Notes under the pieces: model-generated
Told to the model about the DNA's origin: nothing
The model's input: the letters and a program-made list of their open reading frames with translations, nothing else
The model's database searches: none
In this document: positions 33,245-50,130 of the stretch, in pieces
Layout of the letters: each line of letters opens with the position of its first letter
Position numbering within the stretch: the stretch's first letter is position 1
Source of the DNA: an uncultured virus (IMG/VR IMGVR_UViG_3300030328_002163)
Taxonomy: Duplodnaviria; Heunggongvirae; Uroviricota; Caudoviricetes; Crassvirales
IMG/VR virus record: IMGVR_UViG_3300030328_002163
Length of the DNA: 64,000 nt
Reading direction: 5' to 3' (one strand)
Made by a program: the position numbers and the translations under genes

Positions 33245-33467
33245 TAGTATATTGCTTGTCGTTTATGATCATTGTATATCCTGACATCTTATCGTAGTAT
33301 ATCAGATCCCCAGGTTTAATATCTTCTACATTAGTTCCAGGTTTTACTACTTTACCCTTCTTGTATCTAAAATCTTTTATATCATTAGCTGATAGTAGCA
33401 GTCCTGAGTCTGTTTTAATCTCTTCTTCTATTGTATCGATTATAATATACTTGTTTATTGGCCTCAT
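33210..33467 (-). CDS. groES: Co-chaperonin GroES
   Basis: MRPINKYIII...KTDSGLLL...GKVVKPG...IKPGD...ILERDVVVVL. Confidence 0.85.
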   Translation of the reverse strand: MRPINKYIIIDTIEEEIKTDSGLLLSANDIKDFRYKKGKVVKPGTNVEDIKPGDLIYYDKMSGYTMIINDKQYTIILERDVVVVL

Positions 33468-35062
33468 ACTCTTTTGTGTGTAATAATTGCATTAGTAGAT
33501 AAGATTGTTGTTGCTACTGACACTGCATTAACCAGTGCATTTTTAGTAACTTTCAAGGGATCAATAACTCCCATTTTATACATGTCGCCTGTTTTCTCGT
33601 TCTTCACATCATACCCATAGTTACCTCCCATCTTGTCAAACTTACCAACTATCTCCTTAACATCTTTCCCTGCATTTATAAGAATTTGATTTAATGGCAC
33701 TTGTATTGCATCAATTATTATCTCAGCTGCAACTTTATCACTTATAGTTTTCTCAAATGTTTTATATCCTAGTTCTTGTGCTGCTCGGTATAGTGCTAAC
33801 CCTCCTCCAGGAATAATGCCTTCTTGCAAGGCACTGCGCACCGCGCATACCGAGTCATCGACTCGGTCAAATTTTTCTTTTTGCTCCACGTCGCTATTAG
33901 CCCCCACATATATACACCCTATTGCACCGGCCAGACTAGCTATCCTTTCATTGATAAAGTCTTTATCGCTTTTAATTGTCATATTTTTCTGCTGTTCCTT
34001 CAGCTCGTTGATACGATCAAGGGTTGCATCGGTTAGGTTGGCCTCTTTAATAATCACACTAGAGTCTTTACCCACTATTATTTTGTCGACATGTCCCAAA
34101 TCATCCATAGATATAAGGCTCAGATCATCGCCAGTCTTCTCGCTGTATATTTTTGCTCCGACCGCGAATGCTATGTCTTGCATGAGCTCACTACTTTTGT
34201 ATCCAAACTGTGGAGGAGCTATTGTACATAGGTTCAAATTATTTCGCACCACGTTGGCCGCTAGTGTATTGACTACATTCTCCGAGCATGGAGCTATTAT
34301 TAACAACTTATCTCTATTTTGTATAATTGGTTTTAATACGTTTTCTATTTGGAGGATGTTATCTATACCAATATCACACACAAGCACCTTCACATCTTCA
34401 AGCACACACTCATCTTTACGGTGGTTGTTTAAGAACATAGGTGAGGAGTATCCCCTATCTACTTTTATCCCGTTAGTTACTTCAGCATATGTCTCATGGT
34501 TCTGAGATTTCTCTACCGTCACTATTCCATTAGTACCCACTTTGTTATATGCATCGGCTATTATCTTACCAATCTCCTTATCATTATTTGCAGATATTGT
34601 TGCTACATCGAGCAGTGTGTCCTTAGTAATTTTCTTAGAACCCTTTTCCAAAATACCAATAATCTGATCGCAGTATTTATTAATACTTTTAATAACCTCC
34701 GTGATATTATGGTTTTCTTTTAAGAGCCTTTGTCCCACATTAACAATCGCCTCGGTCAGTACTATTGCTGTTGTTGTGCCATCACCCGCTGAGTTAGCAG
34801 TTCTGGTAGCAGCATCCTTCATCATTTGTATTGCTAAATTTTCAATTGCATTGTCTAAGAATATTGACTTGGCTACAGTAACCCCATCCTTAGTTACGGT
34901 AATTCCCCCAGTGTGGTCGGGGGATTCAATGAGTACCGTCTGACCTCTCGGGCCTAGAGTGCTTTTAACTGCTTTAGATATTGCAGTAATTCCTTTTATT
35001 AATTGTGCTCTACCTTTCTCATCAAAGGTTAAGTCTTTTGGTATATATCCTAGTTTACTCAT
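33464..35062 (-). CDS. groEL: Chaperonin GroEL
   Basis: TLGPRG, VTKDGVTVAK, AGDGTTTA, VATISAN, GIIPGGG, GVIDPLKV. Confidence 0.95.
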   Translation of the reverse strand: MSKLGYIPKDLTFDEKGRAQLIKGITAISKAVKSTLGPRGQTVLIESPDHTGGITVTKDGVTVAKSIFLDNAIENLAIQMMKDAATRTANSAGDGTTTAIVLTEAIVNVGQRLLKENHNITEVIKSINKYCDQIIGILEKGSKKITKDTLLDVATISANNDKEIGKIIADAYNKVGTNGIVTVEKSQNHETYAEVTNGIKVDRGYSSPMFLNNHRKDECVLEDVKVLVCDIGIDNILQIENVLKPIIQNRDKLLIIAPCSENVVNTLAANVVRNNLNLCTIAPPQFGYKSSELMQDIAFAVGAKIYSEKTGDDLSLISMDDLGHVDKIIVGKDSSVIIKEANLTDATLDRINELKEQQKNMTIKSDKDFINERIASLAGAIGCIYVGANSDVEQKEKFDRVDDSVCAVRSALQEGIIPGGGLALYRAAQELGYKTFEKTISDKVAAEIIIDAIQVPLNQILINAGKDVKEIVGKFDKMGGNYGYDVKNEKTGDMYKMGVIDPLKVTKNALVNAVSVATTILSTNAIITHKRV

Positions 35063-35089
35063 TGAATTAAATTAAATTAAATTATAAAA

Positions 35090-35097
35090 CAAAGATA
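35090..35097 (-). promoter_or_regulatory. Bacteroidota -7 element TATCTTTG for groEL-groES
   Basis: TAnnTTTG upstream of ATG 35062. Confidence 0.7.
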
Positions 35098-35117
35098 GTA
35101 TAATTTGTTAAAATGCA

Positions 35118-35312
35118 AAATGTCGAATGACAAACTTATTGCTCACCTTACTCTCTATATATATTTTACTTTACTCTTCTTTTTTTTTATTTTTATAATA
35201 GTAATATTTTCGACATTATCGACATTAATAATAATTATAATAATAAAACTACTGAAAATCAGTTAGTTATGTTATGTCGATTTTATTTTTGTAATGACAC
35301 AGTTGTGTCAGT
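35118..35312. other. Putative replication origin A (YGACA repeats flanking AT-rich DNA)
   Basis: TGTCGAATGACA, tandem CGACATTA x2, TGTCG, TGACAC...GTGTCA around near-pure AT tracts. Confidence 0.45.
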
Positions 35313-35327
35313 TATTGTACACTAACC

Positions 35328-35358
35328 AAAAAAAAAGAGATTTATTTCTAAACCTCTT
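35328..35358 (-). terminator. Rho-independent terminator
   Basis: AGAGGTTTA-GAAA-TAAATCTCT followed by a T run on the minus strand, after ORF 35390..35584. Confidence 0.7.
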
Positions 35359-35389
35359 CATTTCACAAAAAGAAAACAGAAAAATATTT

Positions 35390-35584
35390 TTAAAAATTTA
35401 GTTCGTTAAATTTCTTTTTATCTTCCGCTAACTGTATAGCTTCTGCCATCAAATTAATCTTACGATCATTTTCAACTGCTCGTTTTGTAGCAGCTGCTTT
35501 TGCTATTCCAGTCATGCCATCACGCCTGTCATTTATAAGTCTTCCGTCCTTGACGTATAACCCATCGATGTAATCTTTTGCCAT
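35390..35584 (-). CDS. Hypothetical protein, monocistronic
   Basis: 64 aa with its own promoter (35605-35612) and terminator. Confidence 0.65.
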   Translation of the reverse strand: MAKDYIDGLYVKDGRLINDRRDGMTGIAKAAATKRAVENDRKINLMAEAIQLAEDKKKFNELNF

Positions 35585-35604
35585 AGTTATAAAATTTTAT
35601 CCTA

Positions 35605-35612
35605 CAAAGATA
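35605..35612 (-). promoter_or_regulatory. Bacteroidota -7 element TATCTTTG
   Basis: TAnnTTTG upstream of ATG 35584. Confidence 0.7.
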
Positions 35613-36106
35613 CGGAAAATATTTTTGAGTATTCAGATATATAGAGGTTGAGGGCTATACTACATCTTACACAACCCCACCCCAAAACGAAAACGACTTT
35701 TTTTTTCGATTCAAAAAATGTTTTTAAAAATTACAGATAGATTTTTTCAGAATTTTACCCTTCCATGTGGAGAGGGTAGCCTTGCAAGGTTCAGAACCTT
35801 TGAAGGTTCTTTGTCTGTTGTTCATTTTGGTGCATTCTCTTGCACTATCTCGAAGCCTTCCCTTTATTAAAGGTATTTAAAAGAGAAGAGAGAAGAGGAG
35901 CCTTCCCTTAACCCCTCACCGACTCCAATTATAACTAAACAAAACACACACAAACCAAAATAATAAAATCATAATTCAATATGATTTAATAATTGAAAAG
36001 AGAATTTAAAACATTTGAAACAAGTATTTAAATATATTTTCTTGAGGTAATTAAAAGAATTTAACAAATATTGATCAAATGTTAGTTATATATTAAATAA
36101 TTTTAT

Positions 36107-36114
36107 TATCTTAG
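36107..36114 (+). promoter_or_regulatory. Candidate early promoter -7 element (TATCTTAG, one mismatch)
   Basis: About 22 nt before the first early ATG (36136). Confidence 0.4.
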
Positions 36115-36135
36115 CTAAGAATTAAATTAACTACA

Positions 36136-36225
36136 ATGAAAAATAATACTTATGAAATGGAACTTGCAACCATTCAAAACAACTGCCAAGAATTAGAAAA
36201 CTTTATTAACAATTTAAATTTATAA
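36136..36225 (+). CDS. 29 aa first early peptide
   Basis: MKNNTYEMELATIQNNCQELENFINNLNL with AATTAACTACAATG leader. Confidence 0.45.
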   Translation: MKNNTYEMELATIQNNCQELENFINNLNL

Positions 36226-36227
36226 TC

Positions 36228-36497
36228 ATGTACAAAGTAACACAAATGACAAGCCAAAGAAGTGGCAACCCTATTGCAAATCAGTTTAAAATTAGTACTC
36301 CTAAAGGATTATTTTTTCAATCCTATAGTAGTATAATTGCTCTTATTGATAACAAAAATAATATCATCTTAGATGAGTATTACCATGACTATTCAAGAAC
36401 TACAAGCAAGTATTTAACTCAGTTTTTAGACATGAATACTCAAGAAAGAAGAAAGGCAATTAAAGGGGGTGAAATCAAACTTAAAAACCTTAACTAA
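36228..36497 (+). CDS. Early hypothetical protein
   Basis: ANQF...FQSYSSIIA...YSRTTSKY motif, recalled from phage early genes. Confidence 0.7.
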   Translation: MYKVTQMTSQRSGNPIANQFKISTPKGLFFQSYSSIIALIDNKNNIILDEYYHDYSRTTSKYLTQFLDMNTQERRKAIKGGEIKLKNLN

Positions 36498-36499
36498 GA

Positions 36500-36554
36500 G
36501 ATTAACTGAAGAGGATTTAATATCCGAAACACCTCTTTAAGAGGTGTCTTAATC
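36500..36554 (+). ncRNA. Type I hammerhead ribozyme 1
   Basis: GATTAA-CTGAAGA-GGAT(TTAAT)ATCC-GAAA-CACCTCT(TTA)AGAGGTG-TC-TTAATC; complete core, three perfect stems, GUC cleavage triplet. Confidence 0.92.
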
Positions 36555-36568
36555 AAAATGAATTAACT

Positions 36569-36772
36569 ATGGATAAAGAATTTAAAGCAAGGCAAAATGC
36601 TAAATTTAATCTACTCCTAAAAAGATTTGATGAGTGGATGAAAGATGGCAATGTTATGATTAGAAGTGATATCAAAGGAAGGTATTACTCTACTCAAGAT
36701 GCATTATATAAAAACAGAATAGAATCTAAAGCAGAACTATTAGACTATTTTGTAACTGAATTTAACTCTTAA
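36569..36772 (+). CDS. Early hypothetical protein
   Basis: 67 aa with AACTATG start. Confidence 0.65.
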   Translation: MDKEFKARQNAKFNLLLKRFDEWMKDGNVMIRSDIKGRYYSTQDALYKNRIESKAELLDYFVTEFNS

Positions 36773-36782
36773 AACTATAAAT

Positions 36783-37331
36783 ATGACTATTAAACAAAAA
36801 GTTTTTATATCTCTTAAGAAGAAGTATGAAACATCCTCATTTAAATTAGAGGATATTAGAAGAGAGATTTGGATTGCTCAAGGAAAGAATCCAAAGAAGT
36901 TTTACAATAAGCAAGGTTACTACATGGTAGCTATCAATGATTGGGTAGGTGATAGACTTTTAAATAGAAGTAAAAAGAACACTTATAAGATTACTTTTAT
37001 TGGTTGTTTATATGCTAAAAATCCAACCCACACAAACAGAGCATTAAGGAAGATTAGTGAAAGAAAAGAAGCAAGGATAAAACCTATTAATAACCATGAG
37101 GACAACTTCAAACATTTAGTTGGTAAACAAATTGTAAATGTTAGAAGACTAACTCCAAATGAGTGTGGTAAGTTAGGATGGAATAAATCTCCTCTTGTAT
37201 TGGAATTAGATGATAGTACTTGCTTAATTCCTCAAACAGATGATGAAGGAAATGATGGTGGAGCAATGCTACACTATGACTATAAACAAAGAGAAGGATA
37301 CATCAAAGAAGAGGTAATATATCATATATAG
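36783..37331 (+). CDS. Early hypothetical protein (two-domain)
   Basis: C-terminal LVGKQIVNVR...GW...DDEGNDGGA motif. Confidence 0.7.
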   Translation: MTIKQKVFISLKKKYETSSFKLEDIRREIWIAQGKNPKKFYNKQGYYMVAINDWVGDRLLNRSKKNTYKITFIGCLYAKNPTHTNRALRKISERKEARIKPINNHEDNFKHLVGKQIVNVRRLTPNECGKLGWNKSPLVLELDDSTCLIPQTDDEGNDGGAMLHYDYKQREGYIKEEVIYHI

Positions 37332-37376
37332 ATTAGTTTGGAACTTGGAGAGGTTCGACTCCTCTCCTAATCTCAA
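37330..37376 (+). ncRNA. Minimal tRNA-like element (acceptor-like stem plus T-arm, no anticodon arm)
   Basis: (A)GATTAG...GAGAGG-TTCGACT-CCTCTC-CTAATC(T); canonical T-loop; GG in the 11-nt linker. Confidence 0.6.
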
Positions 37377-37406
37377 TGCAATTGTGCAGATTATTAATTA
37401 ACTATT

Positions 37407-37757
37407 ATGGAACATAAAAAACACATGATTCTAAACCTTCTAAAACTCAAGATTAAATTTGAGGAAGATGAAGGTGCAGATGTTACATTTGAGACTAAAT
37501 ACTCAAGTGATGGCTACCCTCTTTTTATTGCTAATTATAACAATGATGAGCAAGGTGAAATGGGAGTAAAAATCTTTATGTATGAAGATAATTTCAACAT
37601 TGAAATGTATGACTACATAAGGGAAAGACTAAGTGAAGAAGACTTAAAATCAAAGACAATATCAGTATTGGCTTATGATGAAGAAGACTTTGATGAACTT
37701 ATAGATTGGAATGATTTCCACAAACAAGCAATTAAATACTTAAAAACAAATAAATAA
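37407..37757 (+). CDS. Acidic early hypothetical protein
   Basis: 116 aa, Asp/Glu-rich. Confidence 0.65.
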   Translation: MEHKKHMILNLLKLKIKFEEDEGADVTFETKYSSDGYPLFIANYNNDEQGEMGVKIFMYEDNFNIEMYDYIRERLSEEDLKSKTISVLAYDEEDFDELIDWNDFHKQAIKYLKTNK

Positions 37758-37758
37758 T

Positions 37759-37893
37759 ATGAATGATTTACTAAACTACATTGATTTCACTTCGATATGT
37801 GAAGACAACAATTTAACAAGTGGTGATATTACACCAACACAAACAAGTGAATTAGAAAAAATAATAACAGAATTTATTGAACAAAATAAATAA
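37759..37893 (+). CDS. 44 aa early peptide
   Basis: MNDLLNYIDFTSICEDNNLTSGDITPTQTSELEKIITEFIEQNK; tiles between genes. Confidence 0.6.
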   Translation: MNDLLNYIDFTSICEDNNLTSGDITPTQTSELEKIITEFIEQNK

Positions 37894-37895
37894 CT

Positions 37896-38015
37896 ATGAA
37901 CAAAAAAGAACTTATAGAAAAAATAGAATGGATTATTGAAGGAGCAGATGTTGGAGACAATATATTCCAAATAGTACAAGACATTAAAAAACTAATAAAA
38001 GAACAAAAACAATAA
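37896..38015 (+). CDS. 39 aa early peptide
   Basis: MNKKELIEKIEWIIEGADVGDNIFQIVQDIKKLIKEQKQ; TAACTATG start. Confidence 0.6.
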   Translation: MNKKELIEKIEWIIEGADVGDNIFQIVQDIKKLIKEQKQ

Positions 38016-38017
38016 TT

Positions 38018-38527
38018 ATGGGACAATATTTTAGAGTAATAAACAAAACAAAAAAAGAACTACTTAATCCTCATACTTTTGGCAGTGGGTTAAAAATAGG
38101 AGAGATTATAAGCAGTAGAGGAGAGATTCTGCAAGGACTTGTTTTGCTATTGGCAGAAGGACACATAGAGTACAAAGATTCAATTCCTCAACCATCTACC
38201 ATTATCGGTAGGTGGCAAGGAGATAAAATAACTATTTTAGGTGACTATGCTCAAGACAAAGAGGGTAATAACATTTGGAATACCATGTTAGACTCTAAAG
38301 GAGAATTAAAGAAGTCATGGAAAGATATTTCTGTTGAGACTTTTAAAACACTAATAGAGAACACCTCTGTAGGCAGTAGGAAAGCCGAACAAATAAGAAA
38401 GGGTGGCACAAAATGGATGTATAGTTGTGAGAAAGCACTTATGGAAGAACTATTCCCTAAGGAATGTACTGAAGGAGACTTAAGAGAGAAGTATGACTTT
38501 GTAGAGAAAGAACAATCTGAAGAGTAA
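38018..38527 (+). CDS. Early hypothetical protein
   Basis: MGQYF...GSGLKIGE...GRWQGDKITILGDY motif. Confidence 0.7.
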   Translation: MGQYFRVINKTKKELLNPHTFGSGLKIGEIISSRGEILQGLVLLLAEGHIEYKDSIPQPSTIIGRWQGDKITILGDYAQDKEGNNIWNTMLDSKGELKKSWKDISVETFKTLIENTSVGSRKAEQIRKGGTKWMYSCEKALMEELFPKECTEGDLREKYDFVEKEQSEE

Positions 38528-38573
38528 AGGTTTAAACACCTACGAAACTCCCATGTATTTGGGAGTCATTGTT
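38511..38573 (+). ncRNA. Type I hammerhead ribozyme 2
   Basis: AACAAT-CTGAAGA-GTA(AA)GGT(TTAAAC)ACCTAC-GAAA-CTCCCA(TGTATT)TGGGAG-TC-ATTGTT; complete core and GUC triplet. Confidence 0.9.
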
Positions 38574-38593
38574 TAACTAAAATTTAATCAAAT

Positions 38594-38974
38594 ATGAAAG
38601 AAGTTAGAGTTTATCTAATTAATCTACATGATTGTAGAGTAAAAGATATGGATAATATCTTAGAACTAACCGATAAGGAGTTTATGTTTGAAGCCGAAGA
38701 ACAAGGAAAGGTTTATTCCTTAAAAGGTTTTCAAAAAGCATTTAACTTAGAAGAGGTTAATATTGCAACCGACCAAATGAGAATAATTGAAGTAGATAAT
38801 CCAGCTGTGGAAGATCCTTCTTCAGATCCTACTTGGGAATTTGACAATTCATCTCCAATTATCCACTTGGATGAGGATGGAAATGAACTCAAAGATTCTC
38901 CACTTAGTAATCCACTTGACAACCATTTTAAAACAATGGCAAGTATGGTCAGAAACTTAACTAAAAATAAATAA
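38594..38974 (+). CDS. Early hypothetical protein
   Basis: 126 aa, AEEQGKVYSLKGFQKAFN motif. Confidence 0.65.
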   Translation: MKEVRVYLINLHDCRVKDMDNILELTDKEFMFEAEEQGKVYSLKGFQKAFNLEEVNIATDQMRIIEVDNPAVEDPSSDPTWEFDNSSPIIHLDEDGNELKDSPLSNPLDNHFKTMASMVRNLTKNK

Positions 38975-38976
38975 CT

Positions 38977-39258
38977 ATGGAAAATACTTTAAAGATTGAA
39001 CACCTTGTTGTAGATGACTTTTGGGTGTATAAAGAAACCAACAAAGAAGGACATGTAGCATTGAACTATATGTTCGGAACAAGTGATGAAGAATATGAGA
39101 TTTTCAAAAAAGAATATTGTAAAGCAGATGAAGAGTTTACAACTTGGTATAATTACTATTATAAAGGAGAGCATACAGATGATGTTATATGCTCAATGAT
39201 TCATATATGGCATGGTATAATTAAACCATCATATCTTCAAAAACAATTAAATAAATAA
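38977..39258 (+). CDS. Early hypothetical protein
   Basis: 93 aa, TAACTATG start. Confidence 0.6.
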   Translation: MENTLKIEHLVVDDFWVYKETNKEGHVALNYMFGTSDEEYEIFKKEYCKADEEFTTWYNYYYKGEHTDDVICSMIHIWHGIIKPSYLQKQLNK

Positions 39259-39260
39259 CT

Positions 39261-39614
39261 ATGGATAAAGAATTAAGAAAAAAAATTAAGGTTGATGTTG
39301 TTAATAATAATATCAAAGAAGTTATGGCTATGGAAAAAAATGGTAATGGTATTGGGGCTTATTGTTTACTAATAGATAAAACTATTGATAGTTTAAAAGC
39401 AATACCCAATTCTATTTTCTTGGAAGTGGTTTGTGATATAACATCCGAAATAACTGCCGAGAAATTTAACCACAAAGAATCAGTGTGGAATAAATCTGAA
39501 CAATCATATAACTATACTGAAGAGGCACAAGATTTCTTCAATAATAAATATGATGAAATAGAACATCTGCTTATAGATAAATTGAAACTAAATGTGGATA
39601 TGATAAACCAATAA
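39261..39614 (+). CDS. Early hypothetical protein
   Basis: 117 aa, YTEEAQDFFNNKYD motif. Confidence 0.6.
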   Translation: MDKELRKKIKVDVVNNNIKEVMAMEKNGNGIGAYCLLIDKTIDSLKAIPNSIFLEVVCDITSEITAEKFNHKESVWNKSEQSYNYTEEAQDFFNNKYDEIEHLLIDKLKLNVDMINQ

Positions 39615-39617
39615 ACT

Positions 39618-40259
39618 ATGAATGTATTAGAATTATTTAGTGGTAGCCGAAGCATCGGCAAAGAAGCAGAGAAGAGAGGGCATAAAGTCTTCTCTTCAGA
39701 CTTCAAAGATTTTCCAAACACAGACTATGTGTGTGACATCATGGAGTTTGATGTAAACAAGATTCCATTTAAGGTGGATATGTTGTGGGCATCACCACCA
39801 TGTGAGTCATTTTCTGTAGCATCAATTGGACATCATTGGGAGAAAGGTAAGGAGTTTATGCCTAAGACAAATAATGCAGTCAAAGGAATAAACATCTTAA
39901 TGAGAACAATGAAGATAATAGATATAATGTTACATAGAAATCCAAACATGATTTGGTACATAGAGAATCCAAGAGGTAAGATGAGAAAGTCTCCTCATTG
40001 GAATGAGGTCCACCATGTTAGGCACACTTTAACCTATTGTCAATATGGTGATGATAGAATGAAGCCAACAGACATTTGGACCAACAACTTTAAATGGACT
40101 CCTAAACCTATGTGTAAGAATGGTGACCCTTGTCATGTTTCTGCACCAAGAGGAAGTCAAACTGGAACACAAGGTCGTGGAAGTTACTATGATAGAAGTA
40201 AGATTCCTTCTGAATTGTGTAAAGAAATAGTAAGTATAACAAGTAAATTAAATAAATAA
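39618..40259 (+). CDS. Short C5 cytosine DNA methyltransferase
   Basis: Motif I LELFSG, motif IV WASPPC, motif VI IENP, YCQYG...KPTDIW. Confidence 0.8.
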   Translation: MNVLELFSGSRSIGKEAEKRGHKVFSSDFKDFPNTDYVCDIMEFDVNKIPFKVDMLWASPPCESFSVASIGHHWEKGKEFMPKTNNAVKGINILMRTMKIIDIMLHRNPNMIWYIENPRGKMRKSPHWNEVHHVRHTLTYCQYGDDRMKPTDIWTNNFKWTPKPMCKNGDPCHVSAPRGSQTGTQGRGSYYDRSKIPSELCKEIVSITSKLNK

Positions 40260-40262
40260 ATT

Positions 40263-40433
40263 ATGGCATTTTATAAATATGAAGAAACAGATGATAATGT
40301 TATTTATTTCTTTTGTGACCTTTATGAATTTTTAGAGGAACACAATGATTGTATGGAAACAAACTACACATCTGTATCACAATTTAATGAGGGAGAGCCT
40401 CACAGAATTATAACAAAAATTAACTTAAATTAA
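40263..40433 (+). CDS. 56 aa acidic early peptide
   Basis: MAFYKYEETDDNVIYFFCDLYEFLEEHN...; tiles between genes. Confidence 0.55.
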   Translation: MAFYKYEETDDNVIYFFCDLYEFLEEHNDCMETNYTSVSQFNEGEPHRIITKINLN

Positions 40434-40440
40434 ATAAATT

Positions 40441-40635
40441 ATGGCAAATAGTAGTTATTGCAGATATGAAAATACTGCACGAGATTTAAAAGATTGTGTA
40501 GAAGCAATTGATACTGATGGAATATCAGAAACTGCAAGTGATAGAGAAATTGAAGGGTTGAGAGATTTACTCCTTCTTGCAAAAGAAGTGGTAGATAGAG
40601 AGGATGAAATTCTGGACTTGCTCGGTGATAGTTAA
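40441..40635 (+). CDS. Early hypothetical protein
   Basis: SYCRYENT...DLKDC motif. Confidence 0.7.
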   Translation: MANSSYCRYENTARDLKDCVEAIDTDGISETASDREIEGLRDLLLLAKEVVDREDEILDLLGDS

Positions 40636-40665
40636 AAAAAATGTATAACTTAAATAAAAATTAAA

Positions 40666-40974
40666 ATGGATTTAGAAAATAAACATACTGAAATTGAACA
40701 TCTTAGAAAGCTATTGCAAGAAGAGATGAAAGCAAAGGATGAAGCAATTAAAGAGTTAAAGAGTTATAAGAACTCTTATTTAACAATTGATAAAAAGTAT
40801 TATCCAAAGGATGTAAAGTTTTATCAGAAAGCAAAACTTTTTGAAATACGAAAAGGTGATGACTTACAAGATGATGATATATGGGATTCATATTGTGAGG
40901 ATCTGGAGGTAGATGAAGGACAAGATTCCTTCTGTGTTTGTGTGATTGGAATGATGCATCAATATGACTCCTAA
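40666..40974 (+). CDS. Hypothetical protein
   Basis: 102 aa ORF with A-rich leader. Confidence 0.6.
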   Translation: MDLENKHTEIEHLRKLLQEEMKAKDEAIKELKSYKNSYLTIDKKYYPKDVKFYQKAKLFEIRKGDDLQDDDIWDSYCEDLEVDEGQDSFCVCVIGMMHQYDS

Positions 40975-41128
40975 AGGAATAATGTTAGAATTATTATACC
41001 TTGTCTCCAAAATAATGAAGGCAAGGTGTGAGCAAACATATGATGAAGCCGAAGCAGATAAGTGGAGTAAGAATCATGATGCTATAACTAAGATTATAAA
41101 CCAAATAGAAAATGGTGGAATAAAATAA
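40964..41128 (+). CDS. 54 aa hypothetical protein
   Basis: MTPKGIMLELLYLVSKIMKARCEQ...; overlaps the upstream stop. Confidence 0.5.
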   Translation: MTPKGIMLELLYLVSKIMKARCEQTYDEAEADKWSKNHDAITKIINQIENGGIK

Positions 41129-41151
41129 TTAAATAATAAAACTATAAAAAA

Positions 41152-41352
41152 ATGAGAAAAACAACATTAGATGTACTTGCCGAGTGCAAGTGGGAATTAG
41201 AAGAAACAAAAGAAGAATTAAGTTTATTGGAGGTTAAATGGACTGCATTAACTAAATGGTTAGAAAAAAATCATGAAGGTAAATTTAAGCATGGCATGGA
41301 TGAAGTAACGAGAGCAATAAACAAAAGGAATAAAAAATTAGGAATTAGTTAA
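41152..41352 (+). CDS. Hypothetical coiled-coil protein
   Basis: 66 aa. Confidence 0.6.
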   Translation: MRKTTLDVLAECKWELEETKEELSLLEVKWTALTKWLEKNHEGKFKHGMDEVTRAINKRNKKLGIS

Positions 41353-41361
41353 ATAAAGAAC

Positions 41362-41369
41362 TACTTTTG
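41362..41369 (+). promoter_or_regulatory. Bacteroidota -7 element TACTTTTG (replication operon)
   Basis: TAnnTTTG 20 nt upstream of ATG 41389. Confidence 0.5.
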
Positions 41370-41388
41370 GGGAAATATACAACAATCA

Positions 41389-41457
41389 ATGAACAAGTAT
41401 TATGCTCCAGATCCAGAAGAAGAAGAAGAAGAAGATGATGTGTTCTTATTTATATAA
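41389..41457 (+). CDS. 22 aa acidic peptide (candidate)
   Basis: MNKYYAPDPEEEEEEDDVFLFI directly after the promoter. Confidence 0.35.
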   Translation: MNKYYAPDPEEEEEEDDVFLFI

Positions 41458-41552
41458 AAAATTAGTTAGTTAATTCAAAGTCAAGCCCACCTCTGATGGT
41501 TATTGTGTTTCATACATGGGTGGGTATTGACGCCTTCAAAACAAAAAGATAA

Positions 41553-41858
41553 ATGAAAAAAGATATATTTAATAAGTATAGTGAAGCTGTGGCTAAACAA
41601 TTTCATCTAACAATAGATGAGATGTTTAGTAAGACTAAGAGACAAGACATAGTAGAAGCAAGACAGATATTATATTATCTCTGCAAAGAAAGACCTATAA
41701 GGTTTAGTTTTATTCAGAGATTTTTAGAAGAGAATGGGTATAAGGTCGGACACTCCAGTATCATGCATGGTTACAAACAAGCTAAAAAAATGATAGAGGA
41801 AGATTCTGATTATAAAAATTTTATTGACAAAGCCACACAAGATGCCGACACTGATTGA
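41553..41858 (+). CDS. DnaA C-terminal (domain IV) HTH-like protein
   Basis: SKTKRQDIVEARQILYYLC...HSSIMHG resembles the DnaA RxxxxxxARQxAMYL...DHTTVxHA motif. Confidence 0.7.
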   Translation: MKKDIFNKYSEAVAKQFHLTIDEMFSKTKRQDIVEARQILYYLCKERPIRFSFIQRFLEENGYKVGHSSIMHGYKQAKKMIEEDSDYKNFIDKATQDADTD

Positions 41859-42252
41859 AATATTTAATGAAGCCAAGGCAGATCCACGAGCAATTATCAC
41901 TCTATATAGTAACAGAGAGTCGGTAATTAATAAAGGATGTAAAATTCAAAAGTTTTCTGATCGAATAGAAATACTCAATATGGGTAAAGGGGGTGACTAT
42001 TTTAAGGTATGTACTCCAAAGGAGTATGAGTATTTTTATAATTTCGGTTGGAGAATAGGTGTTTTACAATTGGCAATAAGCAATTGTCAGTTTAAACTAA
42101 ACATTATTAAGGAAAGAATTAAAAAAGAAGTAAACACCAGAAAGAATGATAAGCATATTCAAAATCTAAAGAACAGAAGAGAAGCTATCATGGTTAAGTT
42201 TACTACCTATAAACGAAAATTAAATCAAGTTAAATTAAAATCACAATTATGA
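41842..42252 (+). CDS. Hypothetical protein
   Basis: ORF track 41824..42252; ATG 41842 is the more likely start. Confidence 0.6.
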   Translation: MPTLIEIFNEAKADPRAIITLYSNRESVINKGCKIQKFSDRIEILNMGKGGDYFKVCTPKEYEYFYNFGWRIGVLQLAISNCQFKLNIIKERIKKEVNTRKNDKHIQNLKNRREAIMVKFTTYKRKLNQVKLKSQL

Positions 42253-42794
42253 ATAAACTAAAATCAATTAAAATCAAAGGAAAGGATTATGTTGAAGTTC
42301 ATGAAAGACTTAAGTATTTCAGGACCACATATCCTAAGTATTCTCTAACTACTGAAGTAATAGAGAAAACAGAATCTTCAATATTAGTTATGGCTATTAT
42401 TAAAGATGATAATGATAGAGTCTTGGCTACAGGGTTAGCCGAAGAGTCTAAAAATTCTACATTTATAAACAAAACAAGTTATGTGGAAAATGCCGAGACT
42501 TCAGCTTGGGGAAGAGCATTGGGTAATTTAGGTATTGGATTAGACACCTCAGTGGCAAGTGCCGATGAAGTAGTTAATGCAATAGCTAATCAAAACAAAC
42601 CTGTTAAGGTAGCTCAAGAAACTAAGAAGGAAGGTAAGTGGACATTAGAGGTGAAGGATGAAAAGTGGGATGTGGTCCTACAATGGATAGCTAAAAACAA
42701 GAAAAAGGGATTAGCTAAACTAATAGAAGAGTTAGAAAAAGACTTGTATATCATCGGTGATGATGTGAAGGTAGAACTTAAAAAACATGTTTAG
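42249..42794 (+). CDS. Single-strand annealing recombinase (Sak/Rad52-like, putative)
   Basis: IKGKDYVEVHER...ENAETSAWGRAL motif; adjacent to the exonuclease. Confidence 0.6.
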   Translation: MNKLKSIKIKGKDYVEVHERLKYFRTTYPKYSLTTEVIEKTESSILVMAIIKDDNDRVLATGLAEESKNSTFINKTSYVENAETSAWGRALGNLGIGLDTSVASADEVVNAIANQNKPVKVAQETKKEGKWTLEVKDEKWDVVLQWIAKNKKKGLAKLIEELEKDLYIIGDDVKVELKKHV

Positions 42795-43596
42795 TCCTAT
42801 GGATCCACAAGCAATTATCTTGGATAAACTCCAAGAAGATATTAATTATTATGGTGACTACGGTAAGCAGTTCTTATCGTACTCAGACATTAAAACATTG
42901 TTTAATAATAAAAAACTATTTAAGCAAGACACACCTAAAACAAAAGCAATGATTGAAGGATCTTACTTTCACACTGCAATGTTAGAGCCGGACAGAATTA
43001 AAGAGTATCAAGTAGTAGATGTTGCATCAAGATCGACTAAAGCCTACAAAGAAATGTGTCCCCCTGGAGAAATCCTTCTTTTACAAAAAGAGAAAGATCA
43101 TTTAGATTTATTGGTAGACACAATGAAGGAAAACTTAGAAATGAGTCATATTATATATAGTAAAGACAATAAGTTTGAAGTTCCACAAACTGAATCAATT
43201 ATGAATAATTTATGGAAAGGTAAAGCAGATATAGTAACAGACTCTTCTTTTCAAGTAATTGCCGAAGATGAAAATGGAGATGAACAAGTGGTTAATTACT
43301 CGGACGGAGCAGTTATTGATCTGAAAACTACATCTGATTTAACTAAATTTAGGTACTCATTTTTTACTTATAATTATGATGCTCAGGCCTATATTTATCA
43401 AAGGTTGTTTAATAAACCTATGTTATTTCTTGTAATAGACAAACAAACAATGGAATTAGCAATGAGACCTGTTTCTCCTGAAACTATTGAAAGAGGTCAA
43501 AATAAAGTTCAACATGCAACAAAAATATATGAAAAATTCTTCGGTGATAAAGCTACTCATGACGTTAACACGTACATCGATAAGCAACTTATATAG
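42787..43596 (+). CDS. PD-(D/E)XK exonuclease (RecE/exonuclease VIII-like)
   Basis: LSYSDIK, GSYFHTAMLEP, KGKAD, IDLKTT, YDAQAYIY. Confidence 0.8.
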   Translation: MFSPMDPQAIILDKLQEDINYYGDYGKQFLSYSDIKTLFNNKKLFKQDTPKTKAMIEGSYFHTAMLEPDRIKEYQVVDVASRSTKAYKEMCPPGEILLLQKEKDHLDLLVDTMKENLEMSHIIYSKDNKFEVPQTESIMNNLWKGKADIVTDSSFQVIAEDENGDEQVVNYSDGAVIDLKTTSDLTKFRYSFFTYNYDAQAYIYQRLFNKPMLFLVIDKQTMELAMRPVSPETIERGQNKVQHATKIYEKFFGDKATHDVNTYIDKQLI

Positions 43597-43738
43597 ATTA
43601 TATAAAGAAAAAACACAACCAACTCATTTACAGGTGCATGTTCCAAACACTTGTAGGAGCTGGAAAGAAAGAAGGGAACTTCTTTCTATAACGAGAAAAT
43701 TTTTGGAACAAAACATTAAAATAGTAAAAAATGAGTAA
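43559..43738 (+). CDS. Hypothetical protein
   Basis: ORF track 43487..43738; ATG 43559 is likely; bridges the exonuclease and SSB genes. Confidence 0.45.
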   Translation: MTLTRTSISNLYRLYKEKTQPTHLQVHVPNTCRSWKERRELLSITRKFLEQNIKIVKNE

Positions 43739-44021
43739 TCAAGAACAAAAGATTTATTGTGGAAGTGGGGTTGAAAAGTTTGATGGTGGATTGGTAGAGA
43801 TATCAGTGTGTTTATCAGATATCCCTAAAGAACATAGATTTGAATACAATGGTAAATGGTATACAAAACTAAAAGTTCAAAAAAAACAGGAAGTAGATGA
43901 GTATGGAAAGACTCACTATGTGGCTGTTAATACATGGAAACCTGATGCCAAAGAAAAAAAGGCAGAAAAACCTGTTGAACAGAAAGAAGAGAAGGAAGTT
44001 GGTCCTGATCTTCCCTTTTAA
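43731..44021 (+). CDS. Single-stranded DNA-binding protein (putative)
   Basis: Small beta-rich protein with an acidic tail ending DLPF, inside the recombination module. Confidence 0.6.
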   Translation: MSNQEQKIYCGSGVEKFDGGLVEISVCLSDIPKEHRFEYNGKWYTKLKVQKKQEVDEYGKTHYVAVNTWKPDAKEKKAEKPVEQKEEKEVGPDLPF

Positions 44022-44055
44022 GTGTGTTTGGAAGTAAGAGAAAATCTTACGACCA

Positions 44056-44113
44056 TGACATTAGAGCAAGAGGAGAGTGTGGTTTCTCTTCTCTTCTCTT
44101 TTGTCTAATGTCA
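44056..44113 (+). terminator. Long hairpin after the SSB gene (terminator or processing stem)
   Basis: TGACATTAGA/TCTAATGTCA perfect 10 bp arms enclosing a purine/pyrimidine inner stem. Confidence 0.45.
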
Positions 44114-44273
44114 AATGACAAAAAAAAATGAGTATTGAGGGCTATAATAATAATTTGTATTATCTTTTTTTTATAATAATATTTATTATTAATTATTGAC
44201 AGAATTGACAGAATAGAGTAAAATCTATTTATTAAGAAGAGAAACTGAAATTAAATTAAATTAAATCGACATA
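44106..44273. other. Putative replication origin B upstream of the primase
   Basis: TGTCAAATGACA, AT-rich tract, tandem TGACAGAAT x2, CGACAT; same layout as 35118-35312. Confidence 0.45.
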
Positions 44274-44275
44274 AA

Positions 44276-46687
44276 ATGGACATTACTATCTTTAAAGATA
44301 TTAAAGAAACAGCACAACCCTTTTTTAGAAAGGTCGATGTTATCTTAAAAAGAATACAAGAAGGCTCTTCCAAAGATTTAGTTAAAAGGATCAGAGCTGA
44401 AAAAGACAAAGAAAAAAGAAATTTACTTAAACAACAACTTCCAGCCATTTGTTTTAGTGGCACATTCAACAAAAGAAACGATACATCCTTACAAGAACAT
44501 AGTGGATTAATATGCTTAGACTTTGATGGCTATAAAACCAATAAAGATATGCTTCAAGAAAAAGAAAGGTTGAGTAAGAATAAATATATTTTTGCATTGT
44601 TTATATCTCCAAGTGGTAAAGGGCTGAAGGCAGTAGTAAAAATTCCTAAAGAACCTGACAACCATAAAAATTATTTTTTAAGTCTGCAACATTACTTAAA
44701 TTCTGATTATTTTGATAAGACCTGTAAAAATATTTCAAGAGTTTGCTATGAATCATATGATCCATTAATTCATATTAATACAAATTCAAGCACTTGGGAT
44801 AAAATTGTAGAGCAAGAATATACAGAAGTAATAAAACATGTAGATATTCCAACTATTCCAGTTACTGATGAAAATAAAATTGTAGATATCCTCACTAAAT
44901 GGTGGCTTAAAAAGTATCCAATGGTTGAGGGGCAAAGAAATCAAAACATATACATATTAGCGGCTGCATTTAATGATTTTGGTGTCAACCAAACTTTAGC
45001 AGAGTATGTAATGAATAATTTTGCTAGTAAAAACTTTACTGCATCTGAGATCAGAAGGACAATAACTTCTGCATATCAACAAGTGCAGAATTTTGGGACA
45101 AAGTATTATGAGGATGAAGATAAAGTAAACTTAGTTAGAGAAAAACTAAAAAGAGGTGTATCAAAAAAAGAAATACGATCTCAGCTTGAGGAGTCTGATG
45201 TTGAGGTCGGCACCATAGAGAATGTATTAGTCAGACTCGAAGATGAGCAGTCCAATAGTAAGTTTTGGACTAAGAATGATAAAGGGGTAATAAAGATAGT
45301 ACACATATCTTTTAAAAGTTTTCTTGAAGAGAATGGATTTTACAAGTTTAATCCAGAAGGCAGTAGAAGTTATGTGTTTGTTAGGGTAACTAACAACTTA
45401 ATAGACCACACCTCTGAGAAAGAAATTAAAGATTTTATTTTAAACTATCTGTTAGAGATAGATGACATTACTGTGTATAATTACTTTGCCGAACACACTC
45501 GGTATTTTAGAGAAGAGTTTTTAACTCTTTTGTCTTCCATAGATGTATATTTTATAGAGGACACCAAGGACACAGCTTATTTATATTATAAGTCTGGAGC
45601 AGTAAAAGTGACTAAAGGCACGGTTACACCAATAGATTACTTGGATTTAGGAGGTTATGTTTGGAAAGATCATGTTATAGATAGAACTTTTGTAATGTGT
45701 GAATCGAATGAATGTGATTACAAAACATTTATATCTAATATTTGTGGAAATGATGAGAGTAGAATAGAGTCTATGAGGTCTACAATTGGTTATTTACTCC
45801 ATGCTTGGAAAAATTTATCCTATAGCCCAGCTACAATCCTTAATGATGAGCAGATATCTGATTCTCCAGAAGGTGGAACAGGTAAAGGTTTGTTTATTAA
45901 TGCTTTGTCTCATATGAAGAAGGTAGTAGTAATAGATGGAAAATCATTTAATTTTGAAAAATCTTTTGCTTATCAGCTTGTTAGTGCTGATACCCAGATC
46001 CTATGTTTTGATGATGTAAGTAAACATTTTAATTTTGAAAGATTATTTTCTGTTGTCACAGAAGGTTTAACCCTTGAGAAGAAAAACAAAGATGCAATAA
46101 AGATTCCATTTAGTAAATCTCCTAAGGTAGCAATCACTACCAACTATGCTATAAGAGGTAAGGGCTCATCTTTCGAGAGGAGAAAATGGGAGTTAGAATT
46201 AGCACAATTTTATACTAGGGAATATACTCCTCTTAAAGAGTTCGGTAAGTTAATGTTTGGAGAGTGGAATGATGATGAATGGTGTTCCTTTGACAATTTT
46301 ATGATTGAGTGCTTACAGCTTTATTTAAGGTCTGGATTAGTTAAGAGTGAATTTGTTAACTTGAAGATCAGAAGACTCTCGGCTGAGACATGCCATGAGT
46401 TTATAGAATGGTGTGGAATATTAGATGACATGCCACCAAATAAAATGTTAGCAACTAATACAAAAATATTTAAACAAGACTTGTACTTTGATTTTATTGA
46501 AGACAACCCTGACTTTGCTCCTAAGTCTAAAATGACAGTATCTAGGACTAGGTTTTATAAATGGCTTACAGCTTATAATCAATTTAAATATAAGTGTGAT
46601 CCTGAAGAAGGAAGAGATTCTGGAGGAAGATGGATTGTGTTTAGAAATGTACAAGATTTAGAAGAAAATGGTAAAATAGATTTTTAG
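44276..46687 (+). CDS. Primase-helicase (BT4734/VirE-N-like primase, PriCT, SF3-like helicase)
   Basis: LPAICFSG...HSGLICLDFD...SPSGKGLK...SRVCYESYD; EGQRN; GGTGKG Walker A; CFDD; ITTNY. Confidence 0.85.
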   Translation: MDITIFKDIKETAQPFFRKVDVILKRIQEGSSKDLVKRIRAEKDKEKRNLLKQQLPAICFSGTFNKRNDTSLQEHSGLICLDFDGYKTNKDMLQEKERLSKNKYIFALFISPSGKGLKAVVKIPKEPDNHKNYFLSLQHYLNSDYFDKTCKNISRVCYESYDPLIHINTNSSTWDKIVEQEYTEVIKHVDIPTIPVTDENKIVDILTKWWLKKYPMVEGQRNQNIYILAAAFNDFGVNQTLAEYVMNNFASKNFTASEIRRTITSAYQQVQNFGTKYYEDEDKVNLVREKLKRGVSKKEIRSQLEESDVEVGTIENVLVRLEDEQSNSKFWTKNDKGVIKIVHISFKSFLEENGFYKFNPEGSRSYVFVRVTNNLIDHTSEKEIKDFILNYLLEIDDITVYNYFAEHTRYFREEFLTLLSSIDVYFIEDTKDTAYLYYKSGAVKVTKGTVTPIDYLDLGGYVWKDHVIDRTFVMCESNECDYKTFISNICGNDESRIESMRSTIGYLLHAWKNLSYSPATILNDEQISDSPEGGTGKGLFINALSHMKKVVVIDGKSFNFEKSFAYQLVSADTQILCFDDVSKHFNFERLFSVVTEGLTLEKKNKDAIKIPFSKSPKVAITTNYAIRGKGSSFERRKWELELAQFYTREYTPLKEFGKLMFGEWNDDEWCSFDNFMIECLQLYLRSGLVKSEFVNLKIRRLSAETCHEFIEWCGILDDMPPNKMLATNTKIFKQDLYFDFIEDNPDFAPKSKMTVSRTRFYKWLTAYNQFKYKCDPEEGRDSGGRWIVFRNVQDLEENGKIDF

Positions 46688-46758
46688 GGGTATCTAGGTA
46701 TCACCGACTAAGAGATAGTCTCTTAGAACTCATCTATGAAAGCCGAAATTTAGAAAAT

Positions 46759-47958
46759 ATGAAGAAAATCACTGTTTTAGACCTTTTTTCAGGAATTGGG
46801 GGATTTCACCTCGGTTTTGAAAAAGCGGGATATGACGTTAAAACTTTCTTTTCTGAAGTCGATACTCATGCCATTGCAGTATATAAGTATAATTTTAAAA
46901 ATAGTAAATATGTCGGATCAGTTACAGATGTTCGAGGAGAACAGTTACCAAAAATTGACGCTATCACCTTTGGAAGCCCTTGCCAAGACTTTAGTGTTGC
47001 TGGAAATCGTAAAGGGATGGGAGGAGATAGATCGAGCCTTATACTTGAAGCGATTAGACTCATCGATGAGTGCCGACCAGGAGTTTTTATCTGGGAAAAT
47101 GTTAAAGGAACGTTCAGCTCAAACGATGGCGAAGACTTTGCGGCAATCCTCCAAGCCTTTACCAACATTGGGGGCTATAGACTTGAATGGCAATTGTGTA
47201 ATACATCGTGGTTTCTACCCCAAAACAGAGAGAGAATCTACCTTGTCGGATATTCTACAGAACCCAAAGAAGATTGGAAAGGAGTTTTTCCTATCCAAAA
47301 AAATGACAAAGTTTCTCCTGGAGAGGGAGGGACCTTGGGGAAAGAATCTGGACATTCACGAACAATAACCGCTAGGTATTGGAAAATGGGATCTCATGAT
47401 ACCTATGTAAAGATGGCAGATTATAGGAATGATGAGGGATTACGAGTAAGGGAAGATGATGAAAGCCCTTGTTTATCTGCACGAAGACACAGTGAAAAGG
47501 ATGTAAGCACTATGCCACCACTTGCAGTCTCTGGAGCATTAAGAACTTTTCCTAGGCAAAAACCTAAAGGTGAAGAGGATAATAGAAAAAAACAACTAGA
47601 AACTAGGAGTGATGATGTTTCTAATGCAGTTACCACCCACCCTTTTGATAGTGTCGTGGTCCCCACTCAATTAGGTAACTCAGAAAAATATGGTAATTCC
47701 GTTAAAGCTGAGGGGGATGATGCTTTCACATTACGATCTTCAGAGCCCAATGGTATTATAGAAAACAAATCAATACGAAGACTTACACCTATAGAGTGTG
47801 AAAGGCTCCAAGGGTTTCCTGATAATTGGACCCAATATGGAATCTATGATGGTGAGACAAAAGAGGTGAGTAACACTCAAAGGTATAAGATGTGTGGTAA
47901 TGCAGTAACGGTAGATGTAGTTGAAGCTGTGGTTAATCAATGCAAAGATATAATATGA
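46759..47958 (+). CDS. C5 cytosine DNA methyltransferase
   Basis: DLFSGIGGF, GSPCQDFS, WENV, QNRERIY, RRLTPIECERLQGFPD, GNAV. Confidence 0.92.
   Translation: MKKITVLDLFSGIGGFHLGFEKAGYDVKTFFSEVDTHAIAVYKYNFKNSKYVGSVTDVRGEQLPKIDAITFGSPCQDFSVAGNRKGMGGDRSSLILEAIRLIDECRPGVFIWENVKGTFSSNDGEDFAAILQAFTNIGGYRLEWQLCNTSWFLPQNRERIYLVGYSTEPKEDWKGVFPIQKNDKVSPGEGGTLGKESGHSRTITARYWKMGSHDTYVKMADYRNDEGLRVREDDESPCLSARRHSEKDVSTMPPLAVSGALRTFPRQKPKGEEDNRKKQLETRSDDVSNAVTTHPFDSVVVPTQLGNSEKYGNSVKAEGDDAFTLRSSEPNGIIENKSIRRLTPIECERLQGFPDNWTQYGIYDGETKEVSNTQRYKMCGNAVTVDVVEAVVNQCKDII
46910..47368 (+). CDS. Nested +1-frame polypeptide within the methyltransferase (candidate beta subunit)
   Basis: Open for 190 codons in AT-rich DNA; ATG 46910 after an A-rich leader; carries STLSDILQ...KEFFLS. 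Confidence 0.6.
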   Translation: MSDQLQMFEENSYQKLTLSPLEALAKTLVLLEIVKGWEEIDRALYLKRLDSSMSADQEFLSGKMLKERSAQTMAKTLRQSSKPLPTLGAIDLNGNCVIHRGFYPKTERESTLSDILQNPKKIGKEFFLSKKMTKFLLEREGPWGKNLDIHEQ

Positions 47959-49187: not shown

Positions 49188-49188
49188 T

Positions 49189-49410
49189 ATGAGGTTTATT
49201 AAGTTTACTCTTATATGGATAAGCCAAAACTTAGCAATACCTTTTTGGGTGGTGGGACACATACATCTTTCTATTCATTCTTTTCATGACTTAATAGAAA
49301 TTTGTTCATCATTAGGAATGAATATTATTGTAGCAATAGGTTTTTATTTAGATTATAAATATGACAGAACAACAAATACAAAGCAAAAGAATAAAAGAGT
49401 TAGAGGCTGA
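49189..49410 (+). CDS. Small membrane protein
   Basis: Two hydrophobic segments, 73 aa. Confidence 0.5.
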   Translation: MRFIKFTLIWISQNLAIPFWVVGHIHLSIHSFHDLIEICSSLGMNIIVAIGFYLDYKYDRTTNTKQKNKRVRG

Positions 49411-49600
49411 TGGATATTATGTAATTAAGTTAATTAAAACTAATAAGAATGGGATTCCTGATCTCCTGGCAATACCACCAAATAGTGATGTTTTATTTTC
49501 AGAGGTTAAGACTCCTAAAGGAAGAGTGTCAGCTTTACAAAAATATAGATTAAAAGAATTAAAAGACTATGGATATAAAACCGAGGTATATAAAGGATAG
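49361..49600 (+). CDS. VRR-NUC nuclease / Holliday junction resolvase
   Basis: EQQIQ...GIPDL...FSEVK...GRVSALQ. Confidence 0.85.
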   Translation: MTEQQIQSKRIKELEADGYYVIKLIKTNKNGIPDLLAIPPNSDVLFSEVKTPKGRVSALQKYRLKELKDYGYKTEVYKG

Positions 49601-50104: not shown

Positions 50105-50130
50105 ATCTTATCAAAAAATTTTTATATTTG
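50100..50130 (+). promoter_or_regulatory. Bacteroidota promoter TTTG-N19-TATATTTG
   Basis: Both the -33 and -7 elements are present before ATG 50151. Confidence 0.65.

Follow-up and report, generated by a model that had tools for sequence, protein, structure and literature searches.

A hammerhead motif across the end of a gene

The stretch of DNA analysed here (the window in the following) comprises 64,000 nt of an uncultured virus of the Crassvirales (IMG/VR record IMGVR_UViG_3300030328_002163), which by its gene content, with virion and tail genes on the minus strand and a GroEL-like gene, is a phage. Its plus strand carries at ~35.7-50.3 kb a block of many small orphan open reading frames (ORFs) together with methyltransferases, an exonuclease, a primase/helicase and a helicase. 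Within this block, across the end of an ORF of 169 aa (38018-38527, +), lies at positions 38510-38574 (+) an element, here called HH2, whose sequence shows all the features that define a type I hammerhead ribozyme. The next ORF, of 126 aa (38594-38974, +), opens a tightly packed run of genes with gaps of 2-7 nt.

In stem I of HH2, AACAAT (38511-38516) pairs with ATTGTT (38568-38573), and G38510.U38574 can extend this pairing. The core is formed by CUGAAGA (38517-38523) and GAAA (38544-38547), with U16.1 at 38566 and C17 at 38567. Stem II (38524-38543) begins with G10.1-C11.1 and a U-A pair, followed by an A bulge, and ends in a loop of ~6 nt; two registers are nearly equivalent, one with 3 bp, an AA bulge and 3 bp, the other with 2 bp, an AA bulge and 4 bp. 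This start of stem II, G-U and then a bulged A, recurs among several unrelated hammerheads of related phages. Stem III (38548-38565) reads CUCCCA-loop-UGGGAG, is closed by A15.1-U16.1 and has C15.2-G16.2. Hence C3 U4 G5 A6 N7 G8 A9, G12 A13 A14, the pair A15.1-U16.1 and an H17 other than G are all found, the core-adjacent pairs G38524-C38543, A38568-U38516 and A38547-U38566 are all present, and with stem I open and stems II and III closed by loops the topology is that of type I. Cleavage is predicted between 38567 and 38568. An earlier note on this DNA had described the core (CUGAAGA, GAAA, GUC) with three stems at 38511-38573 and had placed the 5' part of the motif in the last codons and the stop of the ORF; the sequence matches the first description, and the ORF does end in EQSEE*.

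The 76-nt minimum-energy fold of HH2 is a three-way junction (-16.7 kcal/mol), and RNAalifold over 14 distinct relatives gives the same junction. A tertiary contact between stems I and II, which fast cleavage by hammerheads requires, might be sought in loop II, whose sequence could pair with the outer portion of the stem I 3' strand; A, U and C occur at one loop position without compensation, however, which speaks against a pseudoknot here.

Taken by itself, the core pattern is no more frequent than chance allows (57 matches in the window against a shuffled mean of 28.4, with 6 of 100 shuffles reaching 57). When three stems are required, a descriptor scan of both strands of the 64-kb window returns only two sites, 36500-36554 and 38510-38574, and the same descriptor gives one match in 300 Markov-simulated windows. 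A relaxed, energy-based descriptor, in which position 4 may also be C, returns the two sites again and has no match in 40 simulations. Together with its stems, the motif thus exceeds chance by far.

The first of the two sites, HH1 (36500-36554, +), is likewise a predicted type I hammerhead, with 7 distinct sequences in its family. It is composed of GAUUAA / CUGAAGA / GGAU-loop-AUCC / GAAA / CACCUCU-loop-AGAGGUG / UC / UUAAUC, begins 2 nt past the stop of ORF 36228-36497 and ends 14 nt short of the next ATG. Its cleavage is predicted after C36548, 20 nt ahead of the ATG at 36569. HH1 and HH2 are separated by ~2 kb and enclose a block of six ORFs, one of which, with only 39 aa, accounts for what appeared to be a 124-nt gap at 37893-38018.

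Between the two hammerheads, a tRNA-like top-half element is located at 37330-37373 (+). It has a 6-bp acceptor-like stem (AGAUUA/UAAUCU), a 10-nt connector with GG, a 7-bp T-arm and a UUCGACU loop, lies between ORF 36783-37331 and ORF 37407-37757 with its start within the UAG stop of the former, and is found as a 90%-identical conserved island in a related virus record (G001). ARAGORN and Rfam made no call on it. Its trailer hairpin runs to ~37392, and the same hairpin follows a real tRNA-Arg in one related locus (L024). Similar stubs with a 10-nt connector were seen at L024 2454-2494, L031/L059 1359-1399 and L077 ~4527-4566.

ORFs in 36228-41352 are mostly spaced by 10 nt or less, apart from two gaps of 23 and 30 nt and one pair that overlaps by 11 nt. 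Three longer spacers of 66-75 nt hold HH1 (71 nt), the tRNA-like element (75 nt) and HH2 (66 nt after the stop).

The gene border in related phages

The 169-aa protein belongs to a family (P0001) and has 28 homologues; it has no match in PHROGs, Pfam, PDB or cultured phages, and in Atlas it matches unnamed viral clusters only. The alignment of the 28 homologues was used to fetch 13 viral and 57 metagenome loci. Some of these 70 loci are duplicates (L053 equals L026, L054 equals L020 and L086 equals L032), and others may be one phage assembled twice. Judged from record names and run labels, the related contigs come from marine metagenomes. The hammerhead counts in these relatives rest on our own descriptor because the Rfam family models missed known copies: searches of three related virus records (G001-G003) with RF03152 and RF00163 did not recover the hammerheads known there, and Rfam at gathering thresholds over 16 loci yielded only 5 tRNAs. 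A weak descriptor match at G001 7114-7195 was discarded as a false positive; it is on the strand opposite to that record's hammerhead and its stem II has 2 bp.

In four loci the contig ends ahead of the gene end. Among the 66 assessable loci, an HH2-type hammerhead is on the same gene end in 29, with U at core position 4 in 22 and C in 7. The slot holds an unrelated hammerhead, its first base right after the stop, in six loci, a real tRNA-Arg 21 nt past the stop in one and tRNA-like elements in four; in the other 26 there is nothing and the next gene follows at once. In the 70 loci, every hammerhead that the descriptor found has the same orientation as the genes. In L026 four of them lie within 2.1 kb (3334-5453, +), every one exactly between ORFs, so that clustering of hammerheads as known from other phages is seen both there and, with two copies, in the window.

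Two details of these loci may be added. The L026 hammerheads at 3914 and 4460, which flank the P0001 homologue, have a common stem I and most of stem III in common but a different stem II, and look as if duplicated around the gene cassette. In L031/L059 (~4611-4727) and in L067, a tRNA-like RNA of ~115 nt occupies the slot after the P0001 homologue; it has an acceptor stem, a D-like arm, a T-arm and a ~58-nt insert, scores 24.3 bits on the Rfam tRNA-Sec model (cutoff 47) and received no ARAGORN call.

The 30 instances of the HH2 type (the window and 29 loci) represent 14 distinct sequences, with identities of the adjacent protein down to ~50%. Variable columns are N7 (all four bases), U4/C4, one position of loop II and H17 (C or A), as well as the inner part and loop of stem III, which occurs in three versions that all preserve pairing (CUCCCA/UGGGAG, CACCUCA/UGAGGUG and CCCUUCA/UGAGGGG). 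Two positions in stem I also vary with pairing preserved, from A-U to G.U and from G.U to G-C. Altogether 99.3% of 280 cells are paired, compared with 31.7-47.0% when the partners are slid. Invariance of the 5' strands of stems I and II says little by itself, as these are coding, but their non-coding 3' partners are no more variable. With the loops drifting at the same time, this pattern speaks for an RNA-level constraint. Not one of the 30 instances keeps the peptide while losing the pairing, although seven loci retain both with C in place of U at core position 4.

In the HH1 family, 100% of 119 cells are paired; five pairs in stems II and III have changed on both sides, and the covariation score was reached in 0 of 500 shuffles. 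Common to 25 distinct hammerheads of the related phages, C4 variants left out, is only CUGA-GAG..CGAAA; a MAFFT alignment of such diverse hammerheads is structurally inconsistent in stems II and III. HH1 and HH2 share only the core and closing pairs, and each has a conserved family of its own, which bears out the earlier suggestion of selection rather than recent duplication.

Reading frame and position of the stop codon

ORF 38018-38527 ends in ..EKEQSEE*. Its codons E-Q-S-E-E make up the 5' strand of stem I and the core, and its TAA stop (38525-38527) is located within the 5' strand of stem II. The conserved part of the P0001 protein ends at ..DFVEK. In six loci the protein stops there and a different hammerhead begins with the very next base, and in one locus a tRNA follows. 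A QS(E/D)E tail is found in 29 of 29 loci with the HH2 scaffold and in 0 of 37 other assessable loci; changes at N7 toggle E and D within it. As the tail is confined to loci with the scaffold, EQSEE represents read-through into the ribozyme up to the TAA in stem II. Judged from these comparisons, the tail is the ribozyme read as protein, and not a peptide that constrains the ribozyme.

Among HH1-type copies, the stop of the upstream ORF lies at -6, which is inside stem I, or at +2, +3 or +5. Its place varies with the gene next to it, and the exact overlap follows from the reading frame. Both hammerheads of the window have stop codons in all three frames. At an unrelated hammerhead (L065), the upstream ORF likewise has its stop, a UAG, where stem II begins.

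For a general view of placement, 53 distinct hammerhead contexts were counted after removal of those with identical 60-nt flanks; L001-L019, L053, L054 and L086 were left out, the window entered as 35001-50400 on the plus strand only, and ORFs had to start with ATG and have at least 40 aa. All 46 contexts with an assessable upstream ORF have stem I starting between -18 and +11 relative to the end of the stop (21 at -18, one at -16, one at -7, five at -6, one at -1, ten at 0 and seven at +2 to +11). The remaining 7 of the 53 are within 300 nt of the 5' end of their contig.

mRNA punctuation as the probable role, and its alternatives

Hammerheads in prophages have been reported to cluster around single genes and to cleave in vitro within native transcripts of ~2 kb, and processing of long phage RNAs has been proposed as their role (Perreault et al. 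2011, PMC3088659); a later review still calls the role of bacterial and phage hammerheads undefined (PMC6765202). From sequence and comparison, we think it probable that 38510-38574 is a functional type I hammerhead which punctuates the plus-strand non-structural block of a marine phage, and that its overlap with the gene is a by-product. Constitutive punctuation of the mRNA, as proposed by Perreault et al., appears as the best-supported reading. One polycistronic RNA would be made from the block, and synthesis of the 3' strand of stem I would allow the three-way junction to fold and to cut after C38567. The upstream product would contain the whole ORF with its stop and end in a 2',3'-cyclic phosphate two bases past the 7-bp hairpin of stem III, an end that should slow 3' exonucleases. 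The downstream product would begin with a 5'-OH at A38568 and an unstructured, A/U-rich leader of 26 nt (38568-38593, +) which ends at the next ATG; it should escape decay that depends on a 5'-monophosphate and be open for initiation. HH1 at 36500, the tRNA-like element at 37330 and HH2 together would in this way divide the message into units, each with a stability and a translation of its own. The gene may have lost, or never had, a stop of its own and would now be read up to the UAA in stem II. A type I arrangement can accommodate such an overlap because the cut is ~40 nt downstream of the stop and the upstream ORF is complete. That a tRNA, tRNA-like stubs or a different hammerhead can take the same slot fits a generic "cut here" function.

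Several results weigh against this interpretation. No Rfam hammerhead model reaches its threshold in the window, where matches at gathering cutoffs number zero; the best-scoring model for both copies, RF03152 (the RAGATH-1 hammerhead), gives 21.0 bits for HH2 and 27.3 bits for HH1, under the cutoff of 56.3, and aligns over model positions 21-77 only, i.e. with its hammerhead part, positions 1-20 being unmatched. RF00163 (Hammerhead_1) has no match at the hammerhead copies in the related records G001-G003, and E-value scans of 38300-38800 and 35000-50400 with Rfam gave weak unrelated matches only. The folding energy of HH2 alone is unremarkable (z -1.88; 7 of 200 shuffles are equally low). Its A/U-rich stem I is weak and is lost from the minimum-energy fold of a 191-nt context, in which stem III and the inner stem II are retained; this loss advises caution about the folding of HH2 within a long transcript. 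Moreover, 26 of the 66 assessable loci, mostly with homologues of 34-42% identity, have no element after the gene.

Covariation, which the earlier note had proposed to look for in related phages, gives a divided picture: the HH1 family has its five compensatory pairs, but in the HH2 family only stem III, with its three versions, offers any, and stems I and II, whose 5' strands are also coding, never covary. Even for stem III, the MAFFT alignment shows just a single pair with both sides changed, because it has the two divergent versions one column out of register.

The transcription unit is another weak point. Sites of the sigma-70 type are not above shuffles (28 against 36.7), and a -33/-7 promoter pattern of the Bacteroidota type is not enriched either (8 against 6.6), with none upstream of the block on the plus strand; no promoter signal thus stood out that would delimit the transcription unit of the block. 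Among 20 sequencing runs listed, one is an RNA run, in which 0.05 of the sampled words were found. The related sequence in this run (X20) consists of contigs, which carry no information on RNA ends, and over the window this run and three DNA runs gave only short contig pieces, with no ends or joints. Two contigs of X20, a marine metatranscriptome, cover 36499-36530 and show an HH1-like 5' half joined to a different GC-rich stem III. An HH1-like sequence thus occurs in an RNA library, which is no demonstration of transcription.

Also the core is not fully invariant. In 7 of 29 loci (L038, L039, L040 and L043-L046) it reads CCGAAGA, and these copies make up 5 of the 14 distinct sequences of the HH2 type, with all pairs intact and with several different loops. 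The change is synonymous in the overlapping codon (TCT to TCC). On the protein tree (27 rows) the C4 copies are scattered among U4 copies, with 5 changes on the best tree and 4-6 in bootstrap trees; well-supported branches force only one change, so that the C4 copies may have a single origin. U4C has been reported to reduce activity in vitro considerably, but also a viroid variant with this substitution has been reported to be infectious and functional in vivo (PMC3088659). The seven loci have the same core substitution as this natural viroid hammerhead and otherwise intact motifs; they differ in that the change is also synonymous within an overlapping gene. Either the C4 copies still work, or part of the selection acts on the structure alone.

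Compatible with punctuation, though in our view not very likely, is that cleavage activates translation: the cut would place a 5'-OH at a fixed distance before the start codon and free an A/U-rich leader, in a host that makes little use of Shine-Dalgarno pairing. The leader between cut and ATG is 20-31 nt long in 30 of the 32 contexts with a downstream ORF within 150 nt (71 and 109 nt in the other two), across several unrelated classes of hammerhead, and the 26 nt of HH2 are inside this range. The leaders in the window are A/U-rich and show no Shine-Dalgarno-like motif, and the nearest cultured relatives of the primase belong to phages of Flavobacteriia (hosts Flavobacterium, Nonlabens, Polaribacter, Cellulophaga and Maribacter). 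A precedent comes from RNA viruses of fungi and plants, whose type I hammerheads in the 5' untranslated region are located a short distance upstream of an ORF and leave a 5'-OH leader, and in fungal viruses require self-cleavage for initiation (PMC13725137); this precedent, however, concerns eukaryotic hosts, RNA genomes and cap-independent initiation. Homology among many of the 32 contexts means that the length could reflect common descent and not selection, and other genes in the block start 2-10 nt past the preceding stop without any ribozyme. To our knowledge, nothing comparable to such hammerhead-driven initiation has been shown in bacteria.

The earlier note had further seen in the overlap a means to gate cleavage by translation. 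Terminating ribosomes would occlude stem I, the core and stem II, so that only poorly translated messages are cut and upstream translation tunes the fate of the downstream genes. From the general size of a ribosome footprint, occlusion of the 5' strand of HH2 is physically plausible: the stop is inside the motif in all 30 HH2-type instances, and at all 46 assessable junctions it is either inside the motif or at most 11 nt upstream of stem I, i.e. within reach of a terminating ribosome. Regulated cleavage in phages has also been raised as a possibility (PMC3088659). Nevertheless we regard gating as improbable. The stop moves between -6, +2, +3 and +5 in the HH1 type with the neighbouring gene, relatives of the ORF stop before the ribozyme or precede a tRNA, tight packing is the rule at all junctions of the block, and cleavage is irreversible, so that a transient occlusion would delay but not prevent it. 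Nothing in the comparison seems to require gating, and the overlap as a regulatory device is unsupported. An equally improbable, more far-reaching version would treat hammerheads, tRNAs and ~45-nt top-half mimics as an interchangeable punctuation set, every member of which sits right on the upstream stop and at a fixed 20-31 nt ahead of the next start. By unwinding stem I, the terminating ribosome would time the cut or release the products, and the 5'-OH leader would license initiation in a host with little Shine-Dalgarno use. If true, cleavage would be an active link between termination and re-initiation instead of passive trimming of RNA.

A still weaker case can be made for a mobile cassette, with hammerheads serving as recombination joints or excising gene-length RNAs that are then circularised. 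In comparison with G001-G003 the homology of the window breaks shortly past both hammerheads, in the case of HH2 after 7-19 nt (38574-38593). HH1 forms a 76-nt island (36496-36571), 96% identical and with unrelated flanks in G002; its type lies between four upstream and three downstream gene clusters, and HH2-type copies precede four downstream clusters. By these breaks and exchanges, hammerheads mark the borders of mosaic cassettes. In L026 a common stem I sequence stands on both sides of the P0001 homologue, and any gene that came in would be terminated by the stops present in all three frames. Against this, the compensatory changes, and the fact that one slot can hold unrelated hammerheads, show that selection acts on RNA structure and not on DNA identity. 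The stem I sequences in the window differ, so that the 2-kb fragment would be unable to re-form a ribozyme and ligate itself, and Perreault et al. report that spliced or circular products were sought and not found (PMC3088659). We therefore treat the position at cassette borders as a consequence or a side role of the hammerheads. Least of all do we believe in an inactive element, a terminator-like or protective hairpin whose core has decayed or arose by chance: stem III with the U-rich 3' strand of stem I was flagged as terminator-like, C4 variants persist and Rfam thresholds are missed, but the core is invariant except for U4/C4 and N7 across 14 distinct sequences, nearly all cells are paired, the motif is essentially absent from simulated sequence, and C4 copies show no decay of pairing, the corresponding viroid variant being reported as functional in vivo (PMC3088659).

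Hammerheads at the borders of phage genes, with processing of the message as their proposed role, are an arrangement known since 2011. HH2 resembles the clusters of Perreault et al. (PMC3088659) in ribozyme class, intergenic co-oriented placement, several copies per operon and the role proposed, and differs in being a predicted type I ribozyme of an uncultured marine phage group, with a 5' third that is coding and the stop in stem II. New are the HH2 family with its fixed overlap at a gene end, the series of exchanges in one slot, the C4 series and the fact that Rfam misses these hammerheads. We did not find this marine family described in the literature on phage hammerheads, polycistronic processing, U4C variants or RAGATH motifs; the supplementary alignments of PMC3088659, which were outside this search, may include metagenomic relatives.

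Structured elements that direct the cutting of polycistronic RNAs are also familiar from mitochondrial tRNA punctuation, the t-elements of plant mitochondria and the RNase III sites in the early region of T7. The likeness is in an element at the gene border, and here a tRNA or tRNA-like element can take the place of the hammerhead; these systems depend on host enzymes (RNase P/Z, RNase III), whereas a hammerhead cuts itself. As a single element HH2 offers no new principle. The phage group, however, offers a natural comparison for the "cut here" role, as one gene end occurs with a hammerhead, a different hammerhead, a tRNA, a stub or nothing, and has a natural U4C series with intact stems. It also exposes a gap in the curated Rfam models, which fail to detect a whole set of hammerheads in marine phages.

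Outside the block, the minus strand of the window codes at 50339-57406 for a protein of 2355 aa with no assigned function. The GroEL-like chaperonin is encoded at 33464-35062 (-) and matches PHROG 5725 with an E-value of 2e-133.

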